Source of the DNA: a bacterium
GTDB taxonomy: Bacteria > Oederibacteriota > CAKKQC01
NCBI GenBank assembly: GCA_919901855.1
Contig: CAKKQC010000008.1
Coordinates: 91,616 to 155,615, forward strand
Length of the DNA: 64,000 bases
Direction of reading: 5' to 3'
Numbering within the stretch: position 1 is the first letter of the stretch; each line of letters starts with the position of its first letter. The position numbers are program-made. Positions 34,401-40,400 of the stretch are shown here, in pieces.

Positions 34401-37400
34401 ATGGCCGTCCCCTCCAGGTGCTCCTCGTTCTCCATGGACCAGACGATCACGCTCGGGTGGTTGCGGTCGCGGTAGAGCAGGGCGTCGAGGTCCGCCAGGC
34501 CCGTCTCCGAGCTCCGGAGCTTCCGGTTCTCGTCCATGACCATCATCCCCAGCCGGTCGCACGCCTCGAGCAGCTCCGGCGCCGGCGGGTGGTGCGCGCA
34601 CCGGTACGCGTTGGCGCCCATTCCCTTGAGGACCTTGATCTTGTACTCGTGCAGGCTGTCCGGCAGGGCCACCCCGACCCCGGCGAAGTCCTGGTGGTTG
34701 CACATGCCCTTGAGCGGCGTGAGTGACCCGTTCAGGAAGAATCCGTCCAGCGTCCACTTGATGGTCCGGATCCCGAACACGGTCTCGTACGTGTCGACGA
34801 CCTTGCCCCCGACCTTCACGGTCGTCCGCGCCTGGTACAGAACCGGGTTCTCCGGCGACCAGAGGCGGGGCTTCGCGACCGTCAGCGACTGGACCGTCAC
34901 GCCACGGCCGTCCGCGGCCAAAGCGACAGGCTTCCAGCCTGTCGCCACGCGCTTCCCCTGCGCGTCGACGATCACGGTCTCGACCACCGGCCGGACCGCC
35001 CCGGCGGTCTCGTTGACGACCGTCGTCTCGACGCGGACCGTCGCCCGGCCCGCCGTGACCACCGGCGTCGTGACGTATGTCCCCCAGTGCCCGACGTGGA
35101 CGCGGGACGTCTTCGTCAGCCAGACGTGCCGGTAGATGCCGCCGCCCTCGTACCACCAGCCCTCGGGCTCCGAGGCGTCCACGCGCACGAGGACGCAGGT
35201 CGGCCCCTCGTCCCCGAACCTGGCTACGTCCGTGATGTCCACGGTGAAGCTCGTGTACCCGGACGGGTGGTCGAGGAGGTGGTGGCCGTTCACCCAGATC
35301 CGGGCGTTCCGGAAGATGCCGTCGAACTCGAGCGTGATCTTGCGGTCGCGATCCTGCTCCGGCAGGACGAAGACCTTGCGGTAGAACCCGGTCCCGCGCG
35401 CGAGGAACCCCTGGTTGCGGTCGCCCTCGTTCCGCGCGATCTTCCCCTCGACGACGTAGTCGTGCGGGAGGGCGACGACGGGCCAGGTGTCCGGGTCGGT
35501 CTCCGCGCGCATCTCGCGGTCCATGAACGCGACCTTCGTGTGCTCGCCGCCGCCGCGCTTGACGACGTCCGCGAGCCCGCCGATCACGCCGGATTTCACG
35601 GCGTCGGGCACCCGGATGTCGCCCCGGTGGAACCGCCAGTCCGCGTCGAAACGTTCCCGCGTCCGCATGTCCCCCATGATAGCCGGAATATCCCCTGGGG
35701 GCTCAGACCGCCTCGACGGGTTCCTCCACGACCTCCCCGGCCGCGCCGACCCGGAAGCACCGGGTCTCGCGCGTCAGCAGGGATACGATGACGTACCGCG
35801 TGTCCGGGTCCAGGGCCAGCCGGAGGTCCTCGGCGGACATCCTGGCCGGGCTGGCCGGATGGCTGTGCCCCACCCCGGCGAGCGCGACCCCCGAGCCCCT
35901 AGCCTTCCGGACGACCGCGAACTGCTCCTCCGGCAGGAGCGAGAAGTGCTCCGGACTGCGGTCGGCGTTGGTCATGGGGTAGAGCTCGGTCACGACCCCG
36001 CCCCTTGCCCCCAGGTACCAGCAGGCCTCGAGCGGCGCCTCCTGCCGGCTGATCTCGACCATCCGGTCCAGGATCGCCGCGGCGATCCTCATCCGTTCGC
36101 GATCGTGACCCGGTGGATTCCCCCCCCGACCGGTTCCACAGAGAGGACGGTGAACCCCTGTTCCCGGGCCGACTTGGGGACGTTGTCCAGCGGCTCGCCC
36201 TCGGTCAGGAGGACCTCGAGCCGGTCCCCGGGCGCCAGCTTCTCCATCTCGAGCTTGGTCTTCACGAACGTCATCGGGCAGTGGTCCAGGGAGATGTCCA
36301 GCCGCCGGACGTTCATATGAACAGCACCTGGCCGCCGTCCGCGAGCTCGAGGAACTTGGCCACGCCGAGGATCTCCTGGACGTCCGGCACCAGGTCCGTG
36401 CGCGTGAGCCCCATGATCTGCATCGCCATCTCGCACGCGTAGAAGTTCACCTTGAGCGCCCGGGAGGCGTCGATGAGTTCGTCCAGCGTGGCGACGTTCC
36501 GCTTCCGCATCAGTCCGGTCAGCAGCCGGGGGCTCAGCCCCAGGAAGTTGAACCGGCTCAGGGGGAGGTTCAGCCGCCCCCCCATCAGGAACCCGAACGA
36601 GCGCGCGAGCAGGCCCCGGCCGGTGAACGAGCGCCCGGTCTTCGCCTTGACGATGTCGAGCCCCCAGAACGTGAAGAAGAGGTTCACCCGGTACCCGACA
36701 GCGGCCGCGCCGCTGGCCAGCGTAAACACCGCGATCGCGCGGTCGAAGTCCCCGCTGAAGCACACGATCGAGAGCTTCTTCCCTCCATCAGCCATGACGG
36801 CTCCCCTCCCGGCCGTGCGGCCGGTTCATGGCGCCCCCGCCAGCGCCTGGTTGAAATCCCCGATGAGGTCCGCGATCCCCTCGATCCCGACCGAGACCCG
36901 GACGAGATCCTCCGTGACCCCCGCGGCGGCCGTCTCCTCCGGAGAGCAATCGCGGAAGATCGTGGAGGCCGGATGGAGCACGAGCGTCTTGGCGTCGCCG
37001 AGGTTCGTCATGCACTTGGCCAGCTTCAGCCTGTCGATGAAGGCAAACGCGCGCTCCCGGCTCCCCAGCCGCAGCGTGAGCATGCCGCCGTACCGCCCCC
37101 CGAACTGCCGCTCCGCGATCGCCCGGAAGGGGTTGCCGTCCAGGCCCGGGTAGTTGACGGAGGCGACCCCGGGATGCCCCGCCAGGTGCCGGGCCAGCGC
37201 CAGGGCGTTCGCGCAGTGCCGGTCCATGCGCAATGCCAGCGTCTCGAGCCCGAGGTTGTGCAGGAAGGCGTTGAACGGCGAGAGGCACCCGCCCGCGTTC
37301 TGCACCAGCCGCTTGCGCGCCGAAACGAGGAAGGCGGCCGGGCCGGCCCGTAGGGCGGCCTCGGCCAGGAGCGTAAAGCGGCCCGCCGTCCAGTCGAAGC

Positions 37401-40400
37401 TCCCCAGGTCCACGAGGACGCCCCCGATCGCCGTCCCGTTGCCGGTGATGTACTTCGTCGCCGAGTGGACGACGACGCTGACCCCGTGGCTCTGCGCCCG
37501 GAAGAGCCACGGGGTCGTCAGGGTCCCGTCCACGACCAGGGGCACGCCGCGCGCGGCGGCCGCCTTCCCGATCGCGCCGATGTCCGGCACGTCGAGCCGC
37601 GGGTTGCCGATGGTCTCGACGAAAATCATGCGCGTCCGCTCGTCAAGGGCGGCGGCGACCGCAGCAGGGTCGGTCGCGTCCACGTAGTCCACGACGACGC
37701 CGCCGCGGCGCAGGTCGTTGAAGAGCAGGACCGTGCCGCCGAAGAGGCTGCGCGCCGCCAGGATCCGGTCGCCCGGCCCGGCAAGGCAGAGCGCCGCCGC
37801 CGCGATCGCGGCCATCCCCGACGCGGTCGCGACCGCGCCGGCGCCGCCCTCGAGGGCGTTCATCCGCAGCTCGAACGCTTCGACCGTCGGGTTCGAGATC
37901 CTCGAGTAGACGTGGCCGTATCGCCGGCCCGCGAAGACCTCCTCCATCGCGCCCGCCGAAGCCTGCGCGAACGCCGCCGACTCGTGGACGGGTAGCGAAG
38001 TGGCGCCGGTCTCGCGATCCTGGTCGAAGCCGGCGTGGACGGCCCGCGTCTCGAACGCCGGCTCCGCCCCTCCGCCCATGAAGTACAGGAACTCCACATG
38101 GTCGCCGTCCCGCACCTCCCTGGTCGCGTGCTCGGCGTGCTTCAGGATCGTGCCGTTCAACTCCACCGAGACCGCCTCTGGGCGCGGGACGCCCTTGAGC
38201 TTGAGGAGGGCGGCGACGGTCAGCGGCCCGCTTTCCACCGATTCCTCGCGGCCGTTCAACGTGATCTTCATGCCACCTCCCCCGCCGGAGCGGTCCGGCA
38301 GCGCAGTCCGCAGAACAACTCGTAATCGACGAGCCCGGTCACCGTCGGCGCGTCCCCGCAGACCGGGCAGTCCGGCGCGCGGGGCACGCGGACGGTTCGA
38401 AACCGCATCTCGAGCGCGTCGAAGACGAGCAGGGAGCCGGTCAGGGGCACCCCGATGCCGAGAATGAGCTTCAGGGCCTCGGTGGTCATGATCATGGAGA
38501 CGACTCCCGCGAGCGCGCCGAGGACGCCGGCCTGCGAGCAGGATGGGACGGATCCCGGCGGCGGCGGCTCGGGAAACAGGCAACGGAAGCAGGCCCCCTC
38601 CCGGGGGCGGATCACGAGCACCTGCCCGCCGAACCGGAGAAACGCGCCGTGCACGAGGGTCTTGCCCGCGAGCACGCAGGCATCGTTGATCAGGTACCGC
38701 GCGGGGAAGTTGTCGGTGCCGTCGAGGACGATGTCGTAGCCGGCGATGATCGCGGGCGCGTTCGCGGAGGTGAGGCGCGTCACGAGGGGCCGGACCTCGA
38801 CGTCCGGGTTCATCTCCCGGAGGCGCTCGGCGGCGACCACGGCCTTCTCCCGGCCGACATCCCGGGTCGTGTAGAGGATCTGGCGGTGGAGGTTGCTCGC
38901 CTCCACCCGGTCCGAGTCCACGATCCCGATGGTGCCCACTCCGGCCCCGGCCAGGTAGCCCGCGGCGGGCAGTCCGAGCCCGCCCGCGCCGACGACGAGG
39001 ACGCGGGCGCCCAGGAGCTTCTCCTGCCCCGCTCCGCCCACCTGCGGCAGCAGGATCTGGCGGCTGTACCGCACGATCTGGTCTTCGGTCAGTTCCATCC
39101 GGGTCCCTCCGGCGGCCTTGGATACCCCAGCGTTCCTATCGGGTCACTAGGATATCAAACGCCATGGCCGCCCGTCAAGTTCCCTGACCAGAATCAGCTC
39201 ACCCGCCTGGCTTTGCTGTCCGCGGCGGCCCTCCGCTACCGCCGCTTCGGCGGCAACGTCCGGCGCAGGCTAACCCGAGGCCGTTAGCCGGCCTTTCCCA
39301 CCAGTTCCTTCCAGCGGCGGACCATGTAGCAGTAGTTGTCCCAGGGCACATCCGGCGGCGTCACGTGGTCGAAGTACGGGAGGAACCGGCCCTGCGGCAG
39401 GAGGCCCCGGATTCGCTCGATCTCGGCGTCCATCGCGGCCTCATTTCGCGCCATCGCGCGTTTGTCGATGTGGCCGCCGAGCACGATGTCCGGGTAGAGC
39501 TTGAGCATCGTCGCGAGGTCGTTCCCCGCCTGGACCTCGTTGGGGTAGACCAGGTTGAACCCGCACTCGCGGAACAGGGGCGTCAACTGGTGCATGAGCC
39601 CGTCGCTGTCCATCGACGCGATCCGGACCCCCCGCCGCTTCGCCATCGTCAGGATCTTCGTGTACCTGGGAGTAATGAACCGCCGGAACATCGCGGGCGA
39701 GATCAGGGACCCGTTCTTCCCCGCCATGTCCTCCCAGCCCGCGATCATGTCGATCCGGGTCTCGTCCAGGATCCGGTCCAGGAGCGTGTACCAGAGGTGG
39801 CACATGGTGTCGTTGATGTCCTCGACGAGGACCGGGTCCTCGACCATCATCTCGAGGCACTGCTCCGCCCCCATCATCGTCCTGGGGCCCCCGAGGAACC
39901 CGTACGGGTAGAAACCGACGGCCACCACCTCGGGAGAGGCCTTGAGGGCTTTCGCCCGCGCCGGCCAGTCCGCGGGAAACCGCTCCGGCGAGGCGGGATT
40001 GAACCGCTCCTTGTGCGCGTCCCAGGTCTTCCGGTCCTTGACGGGATAGTCCAGGAACTCGTCCATGCTGGTCTCGGCCTTGTACCCGCGCCGGAGCACG
40101 CCCTGCTCGTCGCGGTAGACGCGCTTGTCCCCGAGGTCCTCGACGTCGGTGAACGGGAACGCGGGGCAGAGGACGAAGTTGACCCCCGCATCGATGTTGA
40201 ACGTGTCGAACCCGAAGAGGTCGTACCAGTCGCGGTCCCGCTTCATCCCCTGCCGCTTCCACAGGCGGGATGTCTCGGCCCACGGCCCCCACTGGATCAC
40301 GAACGGCACCCGGTCCACGGGTCTCCCCTCGACGTACGCAAACAGCCGCTCCCGCGAACTCATCGGCATGGCGTCAGACCCTCCCGAAGTCGTCCTGCGA

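Follow-up and report, generated by a model that had tools for sequence, protein, structure and literature searches.

Here we describe a five-gene operon on the minus strand, at positions 35703-39098, of a 64,000-nucleotide stretch of the bacterial contig CAKKQC010000008.1 (assembly GCA_919901855.1)—a stretch that we call the window. We put at roughly 70% the probability that this operon serves to make homocysteine by a protein-thiocarboxylate route like the HcyS/HcyF/HcyD/MetY pathway of Wolinella, with the sulfur carrier made as a polyprotein precursor. The thiocarboxylate model had been put forward in an initial annotation of the same DNA; it fits every computational test that we ran and, at the level of sequence, appears well supported. 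Once recognized, the module closes a gap in the methionine biosynthesis of a candidate phylum and of many other lineages not in culture. The thiocarboxylate route to homocysteine is thinly covered by annotation, and a passage of a 2018 paper describes it as absent from MetaCyc and KEGG (PMC5764234). The main interest of the locus lies in two aspects: the hypothesis of a sulfur relay through DrsE_2, TusA, and a fusion of sulfite reductase to TusA (Sir::TusA), and the ubiquitin-like processing of a polyprotein.

A fused sulfur carrier and its partner enzymes

The genes of the operon, the two domains of the fusion protein, and a promoter candidate upstream are as follows.

38268-39098, minus strand: thiF, E1-like enzyme of the ThiF/MoeB kind; 276 residues; PF00899, E=1.6e-85
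36826-38271, minus strand: thiS::metY fusion gene; 481 residues; PF02597 and PF01053
38068-38271, minus strand: ThiS-like beta-grasp carrier domain of the fusion, residues 1-68; PF02597 at residues 5-68, E=2.7e-10
36826-38067, minus strand: O-acetylhomoserine sulfhydrylase domain of the fusion, MetY-type and dependent on pyridoxal 5'-phosphate (PLP), residues 69-481; PF01053 at residues 74-477, E=5e-111
36313-36795, minus strand: DsrE-like protein (DrsE_2 family, DsrE2B-like putative sulfur transferase); 160 residues; PF13686, E=2.6e-38
36089-36316, minus strand: TusA-family sulfur carrier; 75 residues; PF01206, E=8e-19
35703-36092, minus strand: JAMM/MPN+ zinc metalloprotease, HcyD-like; 129 residues; PF14464, E=3.6e-16
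39149-39178, minus strand: sigma-70-like promoter candidate (TTGACG, 18 nt, TATCCT, with a TG extension), 50 nt upstream of thiF

All five genes lie where the initial annotation had placed them and belong to the families that it had named, with matches to the ThiS, Cys_Met_Meta_PP, ThiF, TusA, and Prok-JAB profiles; the DsrE-like protein falls to PF13686 (DrsE_2). The 68-residue domain of the fusion is thereby a member of the ThiS family and the domain downstream of it is of the MetY type. The carrier domain is complete: the PF02597 match reaches the final profile position (76 of 76) on Gly68, and the domain ends in the motif EFLYFMGGG, with MetY beginning right after it. The same motif is common to fused and unfused ThiS copies, including the standalone ThiS of related clusters. 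An AlphaFold2 model of the fusion has a mean predicted local distance difference test score (pLDDT) of 89, with the beta-grasp and MetY folds both predicted confidently and the carrier block at 86-95; between the two domains, residues 64-68 (FMGGG) fall below 50. These residues are modeled as a flexible tail like that of ThiS, MoaD, or ubiquitin, and the JAMM cleavage site is predicted to lie after Gly68.

In the MetY domain, Lys273 is invariant across 57 homologues and is inferred to be the PLP lysine. The best NCBIfam model for this domain is TIGR01326 (OAH_OAS_sulfhy), which ranks above methionine gamma-lyase, MetZ, and MetB and is matched at 426 bits, below its cut-off of 495. The top PDB matches are MetY of T. 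maritima (7kb0, 376 bits) and then MetY of W. succinogenes (3ri6, 350 bits), so that the window MetY resembles a sulfide-using enzyme as much as the Wolinella one. This resemblance leaves some room for a different reading, in which the ThiS domain is vestigial or structural, MetY uses free sulfide, and the E1 and JAMM proteins serve molybdenum cofactor (Moco) synthesis, thiamin synthesis, or tRNA thiolation. We consider that reading improbable: the ThiS profile is kept in full to the terminal Gly-Gly, with EFLYFMGGG in all fused and unfused copies; thiS and metY stay next to each other regardless of fusion; and Pfam searches of the window genes found no thiamin or Moco genes.

The E1-like enzyme matches PF00899 over residues 11-246 of 276 and scores 269 bits against the MoeB subfamily model NF004281 (cut-off 266). 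The MoeB, MoeZ, and UbaA models are matched over their adenylation domains only—the MoeZ match covers positions 14-277 of 392 and ends where the rhodanese begins—hence the enzyme has no rhodanese domain, as had been claimed. Conserved among cluster homologues are GAGGLG, two CxxC pairs, and the cysteine of PSCSQAG. In the protease, the JAMM motif E22...H76-x-H78-x7-S86-x2-D89 is intact and all five residues are kept in homologues, which bears out the complete HxHx7Sx2D motif, and with it the intact metal ligands, of the initial annotation; the top PDB match is 2kks (88 bits).

Archaeal small archaeal modifier proteins (SAMPs) modify proteins as well as carrying sulfur, and the module could accordingly be thought of as mainly a ubiquitin-like conjugation system (sampylation or TtuB-like) with JAMM as the deconjugase. 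The E1 does match the model of the SAMP-activating enzyme UbaA (311 bits), and the sole NCBIfam match of the JAMM protein is desampylase (52 bits); both scores, however, are far under the equivalog cut-offs of 450 and 130. The carrier is moreover fused to a sulfur-incorporating PLP enzyme and the conserved context is sulfate assimilation, all of which makes conjugation as the main role very unlikely.

How unusual the fusion is can be judged from the C-termini of related carriers. We searched a 70-residue ThiS-domain query against 1.84 billion protein representatives (clusters at 50% identity) and used the best 150 matches. At least one residue, and commonly 1-4, follows GGG in 145 of these 150, and the standalone carriers of related clusters end in GGG plus GN, K, or AP. 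The Wolinella carrier HcyS studied by Krishnamoorthy and Begley in 2011 is likewise said to be extended, by one alanine that the JAMM protease HcyD removes. That carriers are nearly always extended past the Gly-Gly explains why JAMM is obligatory; judging from these C-termini, the carrier appears normally to be made as a precursor, of which ThiS::MetY would be the extreme form.

The ThiS::MetY architecture has at least 17 database representatives, namely an identical sequence and 16 others at 48-61% identity, and unfused MetY proteins are equally similar to the window MetY (55-62%). The best 150 ThiS-domain matches include P0292, a ThiS::MetY fragment truncated by its contig, and no full-length fusion (about 480 residues); the remaining fusions are probably concealed by the 50% identity clustering. 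In a sample of loci anchored on DrsE_2 (see below) there are 19 distinct adjacent thiS-metY pairs, 14 of them separate and 5 fused, and the two genes thus keep together whether fused or not. Where they are separate they can overlap by 4 nt (L089; L-numbers denote individual loci) or abut with a 1-nt gap (L091), and a single error could join them. An assembly or frameshift artefact is nonetheless scarcely credible as the origin of the fusion, given that the identical protein occurs in the NCBI, ENA, and Logan assemblies, that the non-identical fused representatives have diverged to the extent stated, and that about a quarter of the adjacent pairs are fused in an independent metagenome sample.

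Fusion is not limited to MetY. In P0244 and P0252 (227 residues) a DsrE-like domain follows directly after FLYFMGGG, in a cluster ordered ThiS::DrsE_2-MetY-ThiF-TusA-JAB-Sir::TusA; since both ThiS::DrsE_2 and ThiS::MetY exist, the carrier can be fused to either partner. In a neighbor-joining tree of MetY domains, built without support values, the window MetY groups with unfused spirochaete sequences, outside the main fused clade, which gives a hint that thiS and metY may have fused several times independently.

Conserved neighborhoods and the supply of sulfur

Two sets of loci show how the genes travel together. The control set consists of 80 MetY loci from a scan of genome contigs with the whole fusion protein (40-47% identity); the scan gave generic MetY genes only and no close relative, and none of the 80 loci has ThiS, ThiF, DsrE, TusA, JAB, or Sir within 8 kb. 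The other set, anchored on DrsE_2, consists of 40 loci from metagenomes, each 9 kb or longer. TusA follows DrsE_2 in 39 of these 40; ThiF is present in 30 (within 8 kb, mostly directly upstream), ThiS in 27, MetY and JAB in 25 each, and Sir in 19, and 17 loci have the full set. Five loci hold ThiS-ThiF-DrsE_2-TusA-JAB without MetY; seven others hold DrsE_2-TusA alone, with no E1, ThiS, or MetY nearby. As dozens of independent loci repeat the gene set and the 80 control loci lack it, the arrangement is not due to chance.

Contigs were identified for seven of the fused representatives. Five of these contigs have ThiS::MetY-ThiF-DrsE_2-TusA-JAB, then a Sir::TusA of about 735 residues, then siroheme or 3'-phosphoadenosine 5'-phosphosulfate (PAPS) reductase genes, and upstream of the module such contigs often have Rrf2, cysteine synthase, and a second MetY; on one contig DrsE_2-TusA lies 2.5 kb from the fused module, and one is without the pair. 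The module, with ThiS and MetY fused or separate, was found in L081, in L084-L088, on the contig of the Melioribacter roseus DrsE_2 protein (L089), and in Thermospira aquatica (L091, CP073355.1). The cultured M. roseus and T. aquatica carry the unfused version: L089 has a separate thiS in the order ThiS-MetY-ThiF-DrsE_2-TusA, with JAB directly after TusA, and L091 has a separate thiS and a cation-efflux gene between tusA and JAB. The JAMM protein of L091 (9394-10611, 405 residues) is itself a fusion, with an FTR1 iron-permease-like membrane domain at its N-terminus. In Hydrogenispora ethanolica (L092) the order is sulfate transporter genes, ThiS-MetY-ThiF-JAB-Sir-TusA, PAPS reductase genes, and a gene for a GTPase/adenosine 5'-phosphosulfate (APS)-kinase fusion. 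A PALP gene adjoins thiS in the relatives L082, L086, and L089.

The locus of Trichlorobacter ammonificans (L090, OW150024.1, 5943-16339) is arranged differently. Here DrsE_2-TusA stands beside genes for cysteine synthase, two rhodaneses, an SrpI-like protein, a cysteine desulfurase-like protein, and serine acetyltransferase; ThiS-ThiF-JAB-TusA follows 6 kb downstream of the pair, and there is no MetY. The arrangement suggests that some organisms may use this relay for making cysteine.

The Sir::TusA proteins of the relatives are of the assimilatory type, about 735-790 residues long, with two NIR_SIR_ferr+NIR_SIR repeats and a C-terminal TusA domain (L081 10482-12701; L084 3871-6054; L085 10464-12686; L086 10384-12594; L087 9654-11861; L088 9063-11279; L091 10626-12998). 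The TusA fused to Sir has the motif CP[LM]NFVK and the TusA adjacent to DrsE_2 has CPMTFVK, hence the clusters of these relatives encode two types of TusA paralogue. The window holds only the DrsE_2-adjacent type and no Sir: tblastn with the relatives' proteins found no sulfite reductase (Sir::TusA), PAPS reductase, PALP cysteine synthase, or Rrf2 in the 64 kb, and Pfam searches of the remaining window genes found no sulfate-reduction genes. The initial annotation had stated that the operon contains every part needed for the pathway; this was too strong, as the module of the relatives normally sits in a sulfate-reduction cluster with Sir::TusA.

Both members of the DrsE_2-TusA pair retain a candidate sulfur-carrying cysteine. 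The DsrE-like protein has a single conserved cysteine, Cys121 (NFYACEM), which is invariant in 10 cluster homologues (Cys12 varies) and aligns with the cysteine of PDB entries 3pnx and 2qs7, both matched at E about 1e-23; the latter is the Sulfolobus DsrE2B (PMC11094781). Homologues are 63-74% identical across phyla, including those of the cultured M. roseus, T. ammonificans, and T. aquatica, and the score against the DsrE2 equivalog NF047629 is 71.8 bits, below the cut-off of 210. In TusA, Cys14 lies in HCPMTFVKTK and is invariant among cluster homologues; throughout the subfamily the motif is C-P-M-T, with Thr in place of the second Pro of Cys-Pro-x-Pro, and the scores against the NCBIfam equivalogs YedF (42 bits, cut-off 79) and YeeD (26 bits, cut-off 147.5) are too low for either name. 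Conservation of the pair stands at 67-69% identity, compared with 48-56% for ThiF, MetY, and JAB. Between the cysteines of DsrE3A-TusA pairs, sulfur species are known to pass (PMC4175335, PMC11094781).

The mechanism that we propose has five steps, all of which we infer—the first three from sequence features and gene linkage, the last two on the precedent of Wolinella. JAMM would first cut ThiS::MetY after Gly68, giving a 68-residue carrier with a Gly-Gly end and a mature MetY, as the features of the fusion suggest. The rhodanese-less E1 would then adenylate the carrier C-terminus, in keeping with its family membership and intact motifs. In the third step sulfur would be transferred to the acyl-adenylate to form carrier-COSH; the donor would most likely be a cysteine persulfide passed via DrsE_2 Cys121 and TusA Cys14, with free sulfide as an alternative or bypass. 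This delivery by DrsE_2 and TusA, suggested by gene linkage, is the weakest step. MetY would next attack O-acetylhomoserine with carrier-COSH, and an S-to-N acyl shift would yield carrier-homocysteine, by analogy with Wolinella; finally, and again by analogy, the same JAMM would hydrolyze the adduct to homocysteine and recycled carrier. Most relatives obtain the sulfur from the adjacent sulfite reductase, which has a C-terminal TusA domain of its own.

Three things favor a persulfide relay for the third step: the linkage of the genes, the existence of ThiS::DrsE_2 fusions, and the fact that the window has kept the pair without Sir. Taken to its full extent, the idea is that DrsE_2 and TusA form a dedicated persulfide relay without free sulfide (joined by the Sir-fused TusA in relatives) and that the carrier derives from interchangeable, JAMM-matured ThiS::MetY or ThiS::DrsE_2 precursors; this extended form is tentative, and we would sooner doubt it than rely on it. 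If true, the relay would be the assimilatory counterpart of the dissimilatory TusA-DsrEFH-DsrC relay and would give DsrE2B-type proteins their first physiological role. The tight and widespread linkage of the highly conserved DrsE_2-TusA pair, and of Sir::TusA fusions, to the carrier-activating core bears in any case on how sulfur is supplied to carriers whose E1 has no rhodanese, and on the role of the DsrE2B-type proteins.

Several observations weigh against a thiocarboxylate pathway fed in this way. Similarity of MetY cannot tell users of thiocarboxylate from users of sulfide, with T. maritima MetY outscoring that of Wolinella; the NCBIfam equivalog models for MetY, JAMM, TusA, and DsrE2 all score under their cut-offs; and the window has no sulfite reductase, cysteine synthase, or homoserine acetyltransferase. 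The Wolinella system reportedly worked in vitro with bisulfide in the 2011 study of Krishnamoorthy and Begley. The ThiS::MetY cluster of L082 is without DrsE_2 and TusA and that of L092 without DrsE_2, hence the pair is not essential for the core chemistry. Additionally, DsrE2B, the closest characterized DsrE class, was inert to six sulfur compounds in vitro (PMC4175335).

The points on bisulfide, on the clusters that manage without DrsE_2, and on the inertness of DsrE2B lend themselves to an alternative in which the core pathway holds and DrsE_2 and TusA do not feed the carrier: free sulfide would attack the carrier adenylate, as in the Wolinella system in vitro, and the pair would be a separate unit for sulfur trafficking, thiosulfate handling, or reactive-sulfur buffering that travels with sulfur-assimilation genes. 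The seven loci that have the pair only, and its place in L090 beside rhodaneses, cysteine synthase, and serine acetyltransferase at a distance from ThiS-ThiF-JAB, fit such a unit. The frequent presence of ThiF, however, and the five loci that keep the pair with ThiS-ThiF-JAB in the absence of MetY tie the pair to the carrier-activation core; ThiS::DrsE_2 fusion proteins exist; the pair stays with the module in the window despite the absence of sulfate-reduction genes there; and it is better conserved than ThiF, MetY, and JAB. We regard a separate role of the pair as possible, and as an alternative that concerns the sulfur donor alone—the thiocarboxylate route to homocysteine is common to it and to our preferred reading.

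The operon in its genomic setting

The five genes are tightly packed. ATGA stop/start overlaps can be read from the sequence at three junctions, thiF/thiS-metY and dsrE/tusA, both reported initially, and tusA/JAMM, which we add; the gap from metY to dsrE is 30 nt and contains a strong ribosome-binding site, GGGAGGGGAG. The promoter candidate at 39149-39178 is the sole promoter-like site in 35400-39400, where shuffled sequences average 0.2, and it is a match to consensus only. Within the operon there are no promoter-like or terminator-like sites, and an Rfam/riboswitch search upstream of and within the operon gave no match even at E up to 1. This apparent translational coupling and the one promoter-like site upstream support an operon structure. 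A GH2 beta-galactosidase gene (NCBIfam GalA, 971 bits) begins 25 nt past the JAMM gene on the same strand, thus the transcript may run past the five genes.

All nine window proteins that we looked up have entries at NCBI, MEK7474895-99 being those of the five genes. The 481-residue ThiS::MetY protein (MEK7474898.1) is labeled "sulfur carrier protein ThiS" at NCBI; at JGI, homologues of the fusion are labeled "O-acetylhomoserine (thiol)-lyase" and the DsrE-like family "peroxiredoxin family protein". Each of these names conceals part of the function. The initial annotation had called the genome PVC-like (Planctomycetes-Verrucomicrobia-Chlamydiae); going by the label only, this does not hold, as NCBI labels the source metagenome-assembled genome Candidatus Coatesbacteria (Ca. 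Coatesiibacteriota), a phylum not placed in PVC.

The operon is flanked by unrelated carbohydrate genes. Glycoside hydrolase (GH) genes, of families GH2 (twice), GH42-like, GH38, GH4, and GH106, lie at 3-3179, 21283-25569, 27593-30058, 33299-35677, and 62635-63999; there are also a fucose-isomerase-like gene (5167-6714) and a xylose-isomerase-like TIM-barrel gene (54405-55340). This dense set of glycoside hydrolases suggests, as far as gene content goes, a polysaccharide-degrading lifestyle. An MttB-superfamily methyltransferase is encoded at 29752-31482 on the plus strand and scores 354 bits against the cut-off of 525 for the pyrrolysine (Pyl)-type trimethylamine enzyme; it is probably a non-Pyl relative. 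Directly upstream of the operon, at 39284-40369 on the minus strand, is a URO-D-family gene without an NCBIfam match, and no corrinoid protein was seen in the window. A link of the MttB and URO-D genes to methyl transfer onto homocysteine would be pure speculation. Lastly, an AbiEii-type nucleotidyltransferase toxin domain (25590-26405, plus strand) and a PIN-domain protein (31763-32206, plus strand) are likely parts of toxin-antitoxin modules.

Relation to known sulfur-carrier systems

The kind of neighborhood to which the operon belongs was described in 2006 by Iyer, Burroughs, and Aravind as type 4e. In the passages and table row (Table 1, row 4e) that deal with it, this type combines a ThiS/MoaD-like protein, JAB, a rhodanese-less E1, SirA, sulfate assimilation genes, and O-acetylhomoserine sulfhydrylase; sulfite reductase is also given as part of these neighborhoods, and the hosts are Geobacter, Wolinella, several Firmicutes, and others (PMC1779556). 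SirA, which is TusA, is described there as invariable in 4e and proposed to act like a rhodanese, in connection with the rhodanese missing from the E1 (PMC1779556). The Wolinella member of 4e is, according to passages of two later papers, the characterized HcyS/HcyF/HcyD/MetY pathway, in which MetY uses a thiocarboxylated carrier protein (PMC8191291, PMC5764234).

The window shares five of six testable features with 4e and the Hcy system—a carrier with a masked Gly-Gly, a rhodanese-less E1, an intact JAMM, MetY, and SirA/TusA—and the likeness to Wolinella suggested initially is upheld to that extent. The sixth feature, linkage to sulfate-to-sulfide genes, is absent from the 64 kb and present in most relatives; of the 4e members listed in the passages of the 2006 paper, the transporter, PAPS reductase, ATP sulfurylase, and sulfite reductase are missing from the window. 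As in Wolinella, there is an extended ThiS-like carrier with a JAMM protease, a rhodanese-less E1, and a MetY (3ri6, of Tran et al. 2011, being the second-best PDB match) in the same 4e neighborhood. Unlike in Wolinella, the extension here is a whole MetY, DrsE_2 is present, and no sulfite reductase or sulfate-activation genes occur within 64 kb; the likeness for HcyS, HcyF, and HcyD is one of descriptions. What sets the window apart from the known kind is the fusion of carrier to MetY, the presence of a DrsE_2 gene, and the detachment from sulfate reduction genes.

The initial annotation had taken the combination of genes to be uncharacterized, which proves right in part. The use of TusA in place of a rhodanese was already proposed in the 2006 paper (PMC1779556). 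The word DsrE does not occur in that paper, and the ThiS/MoaD fusions named in its passages are those with ThiG, MoaE, sulfite reductase, and aldehyde ferredoxin oxidoreductase, with ThiS::MetY not among them (PMC1779556). In the searchable literature, which omits many subscription-journal papers, we found no description of the DsrE-like member or of the ThiS::MetY fusion, and no paper joining MetY, TusA, and DsrE. The fusion and the DsrE-like member are therefore the less described parts of the system, yet neither is unique to this genome.

Three further systems invite comparison. The CysO/MoeZ/Mec+/CysM pathway of Mycobacterium tuberculosis resembles the proposed one in its thiocarboxylated ubiquitin-like carrier, its PLP sulfhydrylase, and a JAMM protease that releases the amino acid; its client, however, is a PALP-fold cysteine synthase and its MoeZ has a rhodanese, whereas no PALP gene was found in the window and the E1 there is without a rhodanese. 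The DsrE2B/DsrE3A-TusA relays of Metallosphaera cuprina, Sulfolobus (2qs7), and the Hyphomicrobium sHdr system share the DrsE_2 fold, the active-site cysteine, and the adjacent TusA; their context is dissimilatory (Hdr or Dsr), whereas that of the window is assimilatory (E1, ThiS, and MetY). The closest parallel to the polyprotein is the MoaD-MoaE fusion of Deinococcus, which the JAMM protease DRJAMM is described as cleaving in passages of PMC8832034: a Gly-Gly carrier is again in frame with a partner enzyme and released by JAMM, the cleavage being predicted in our case, and the differences lie in the molybdopterin pathway and the other partner enzyme. Seen in this company, the recurrent fusions of a carrier to an enzyme form a bacterial counterpart to the fusion precursors of ubiquitin.

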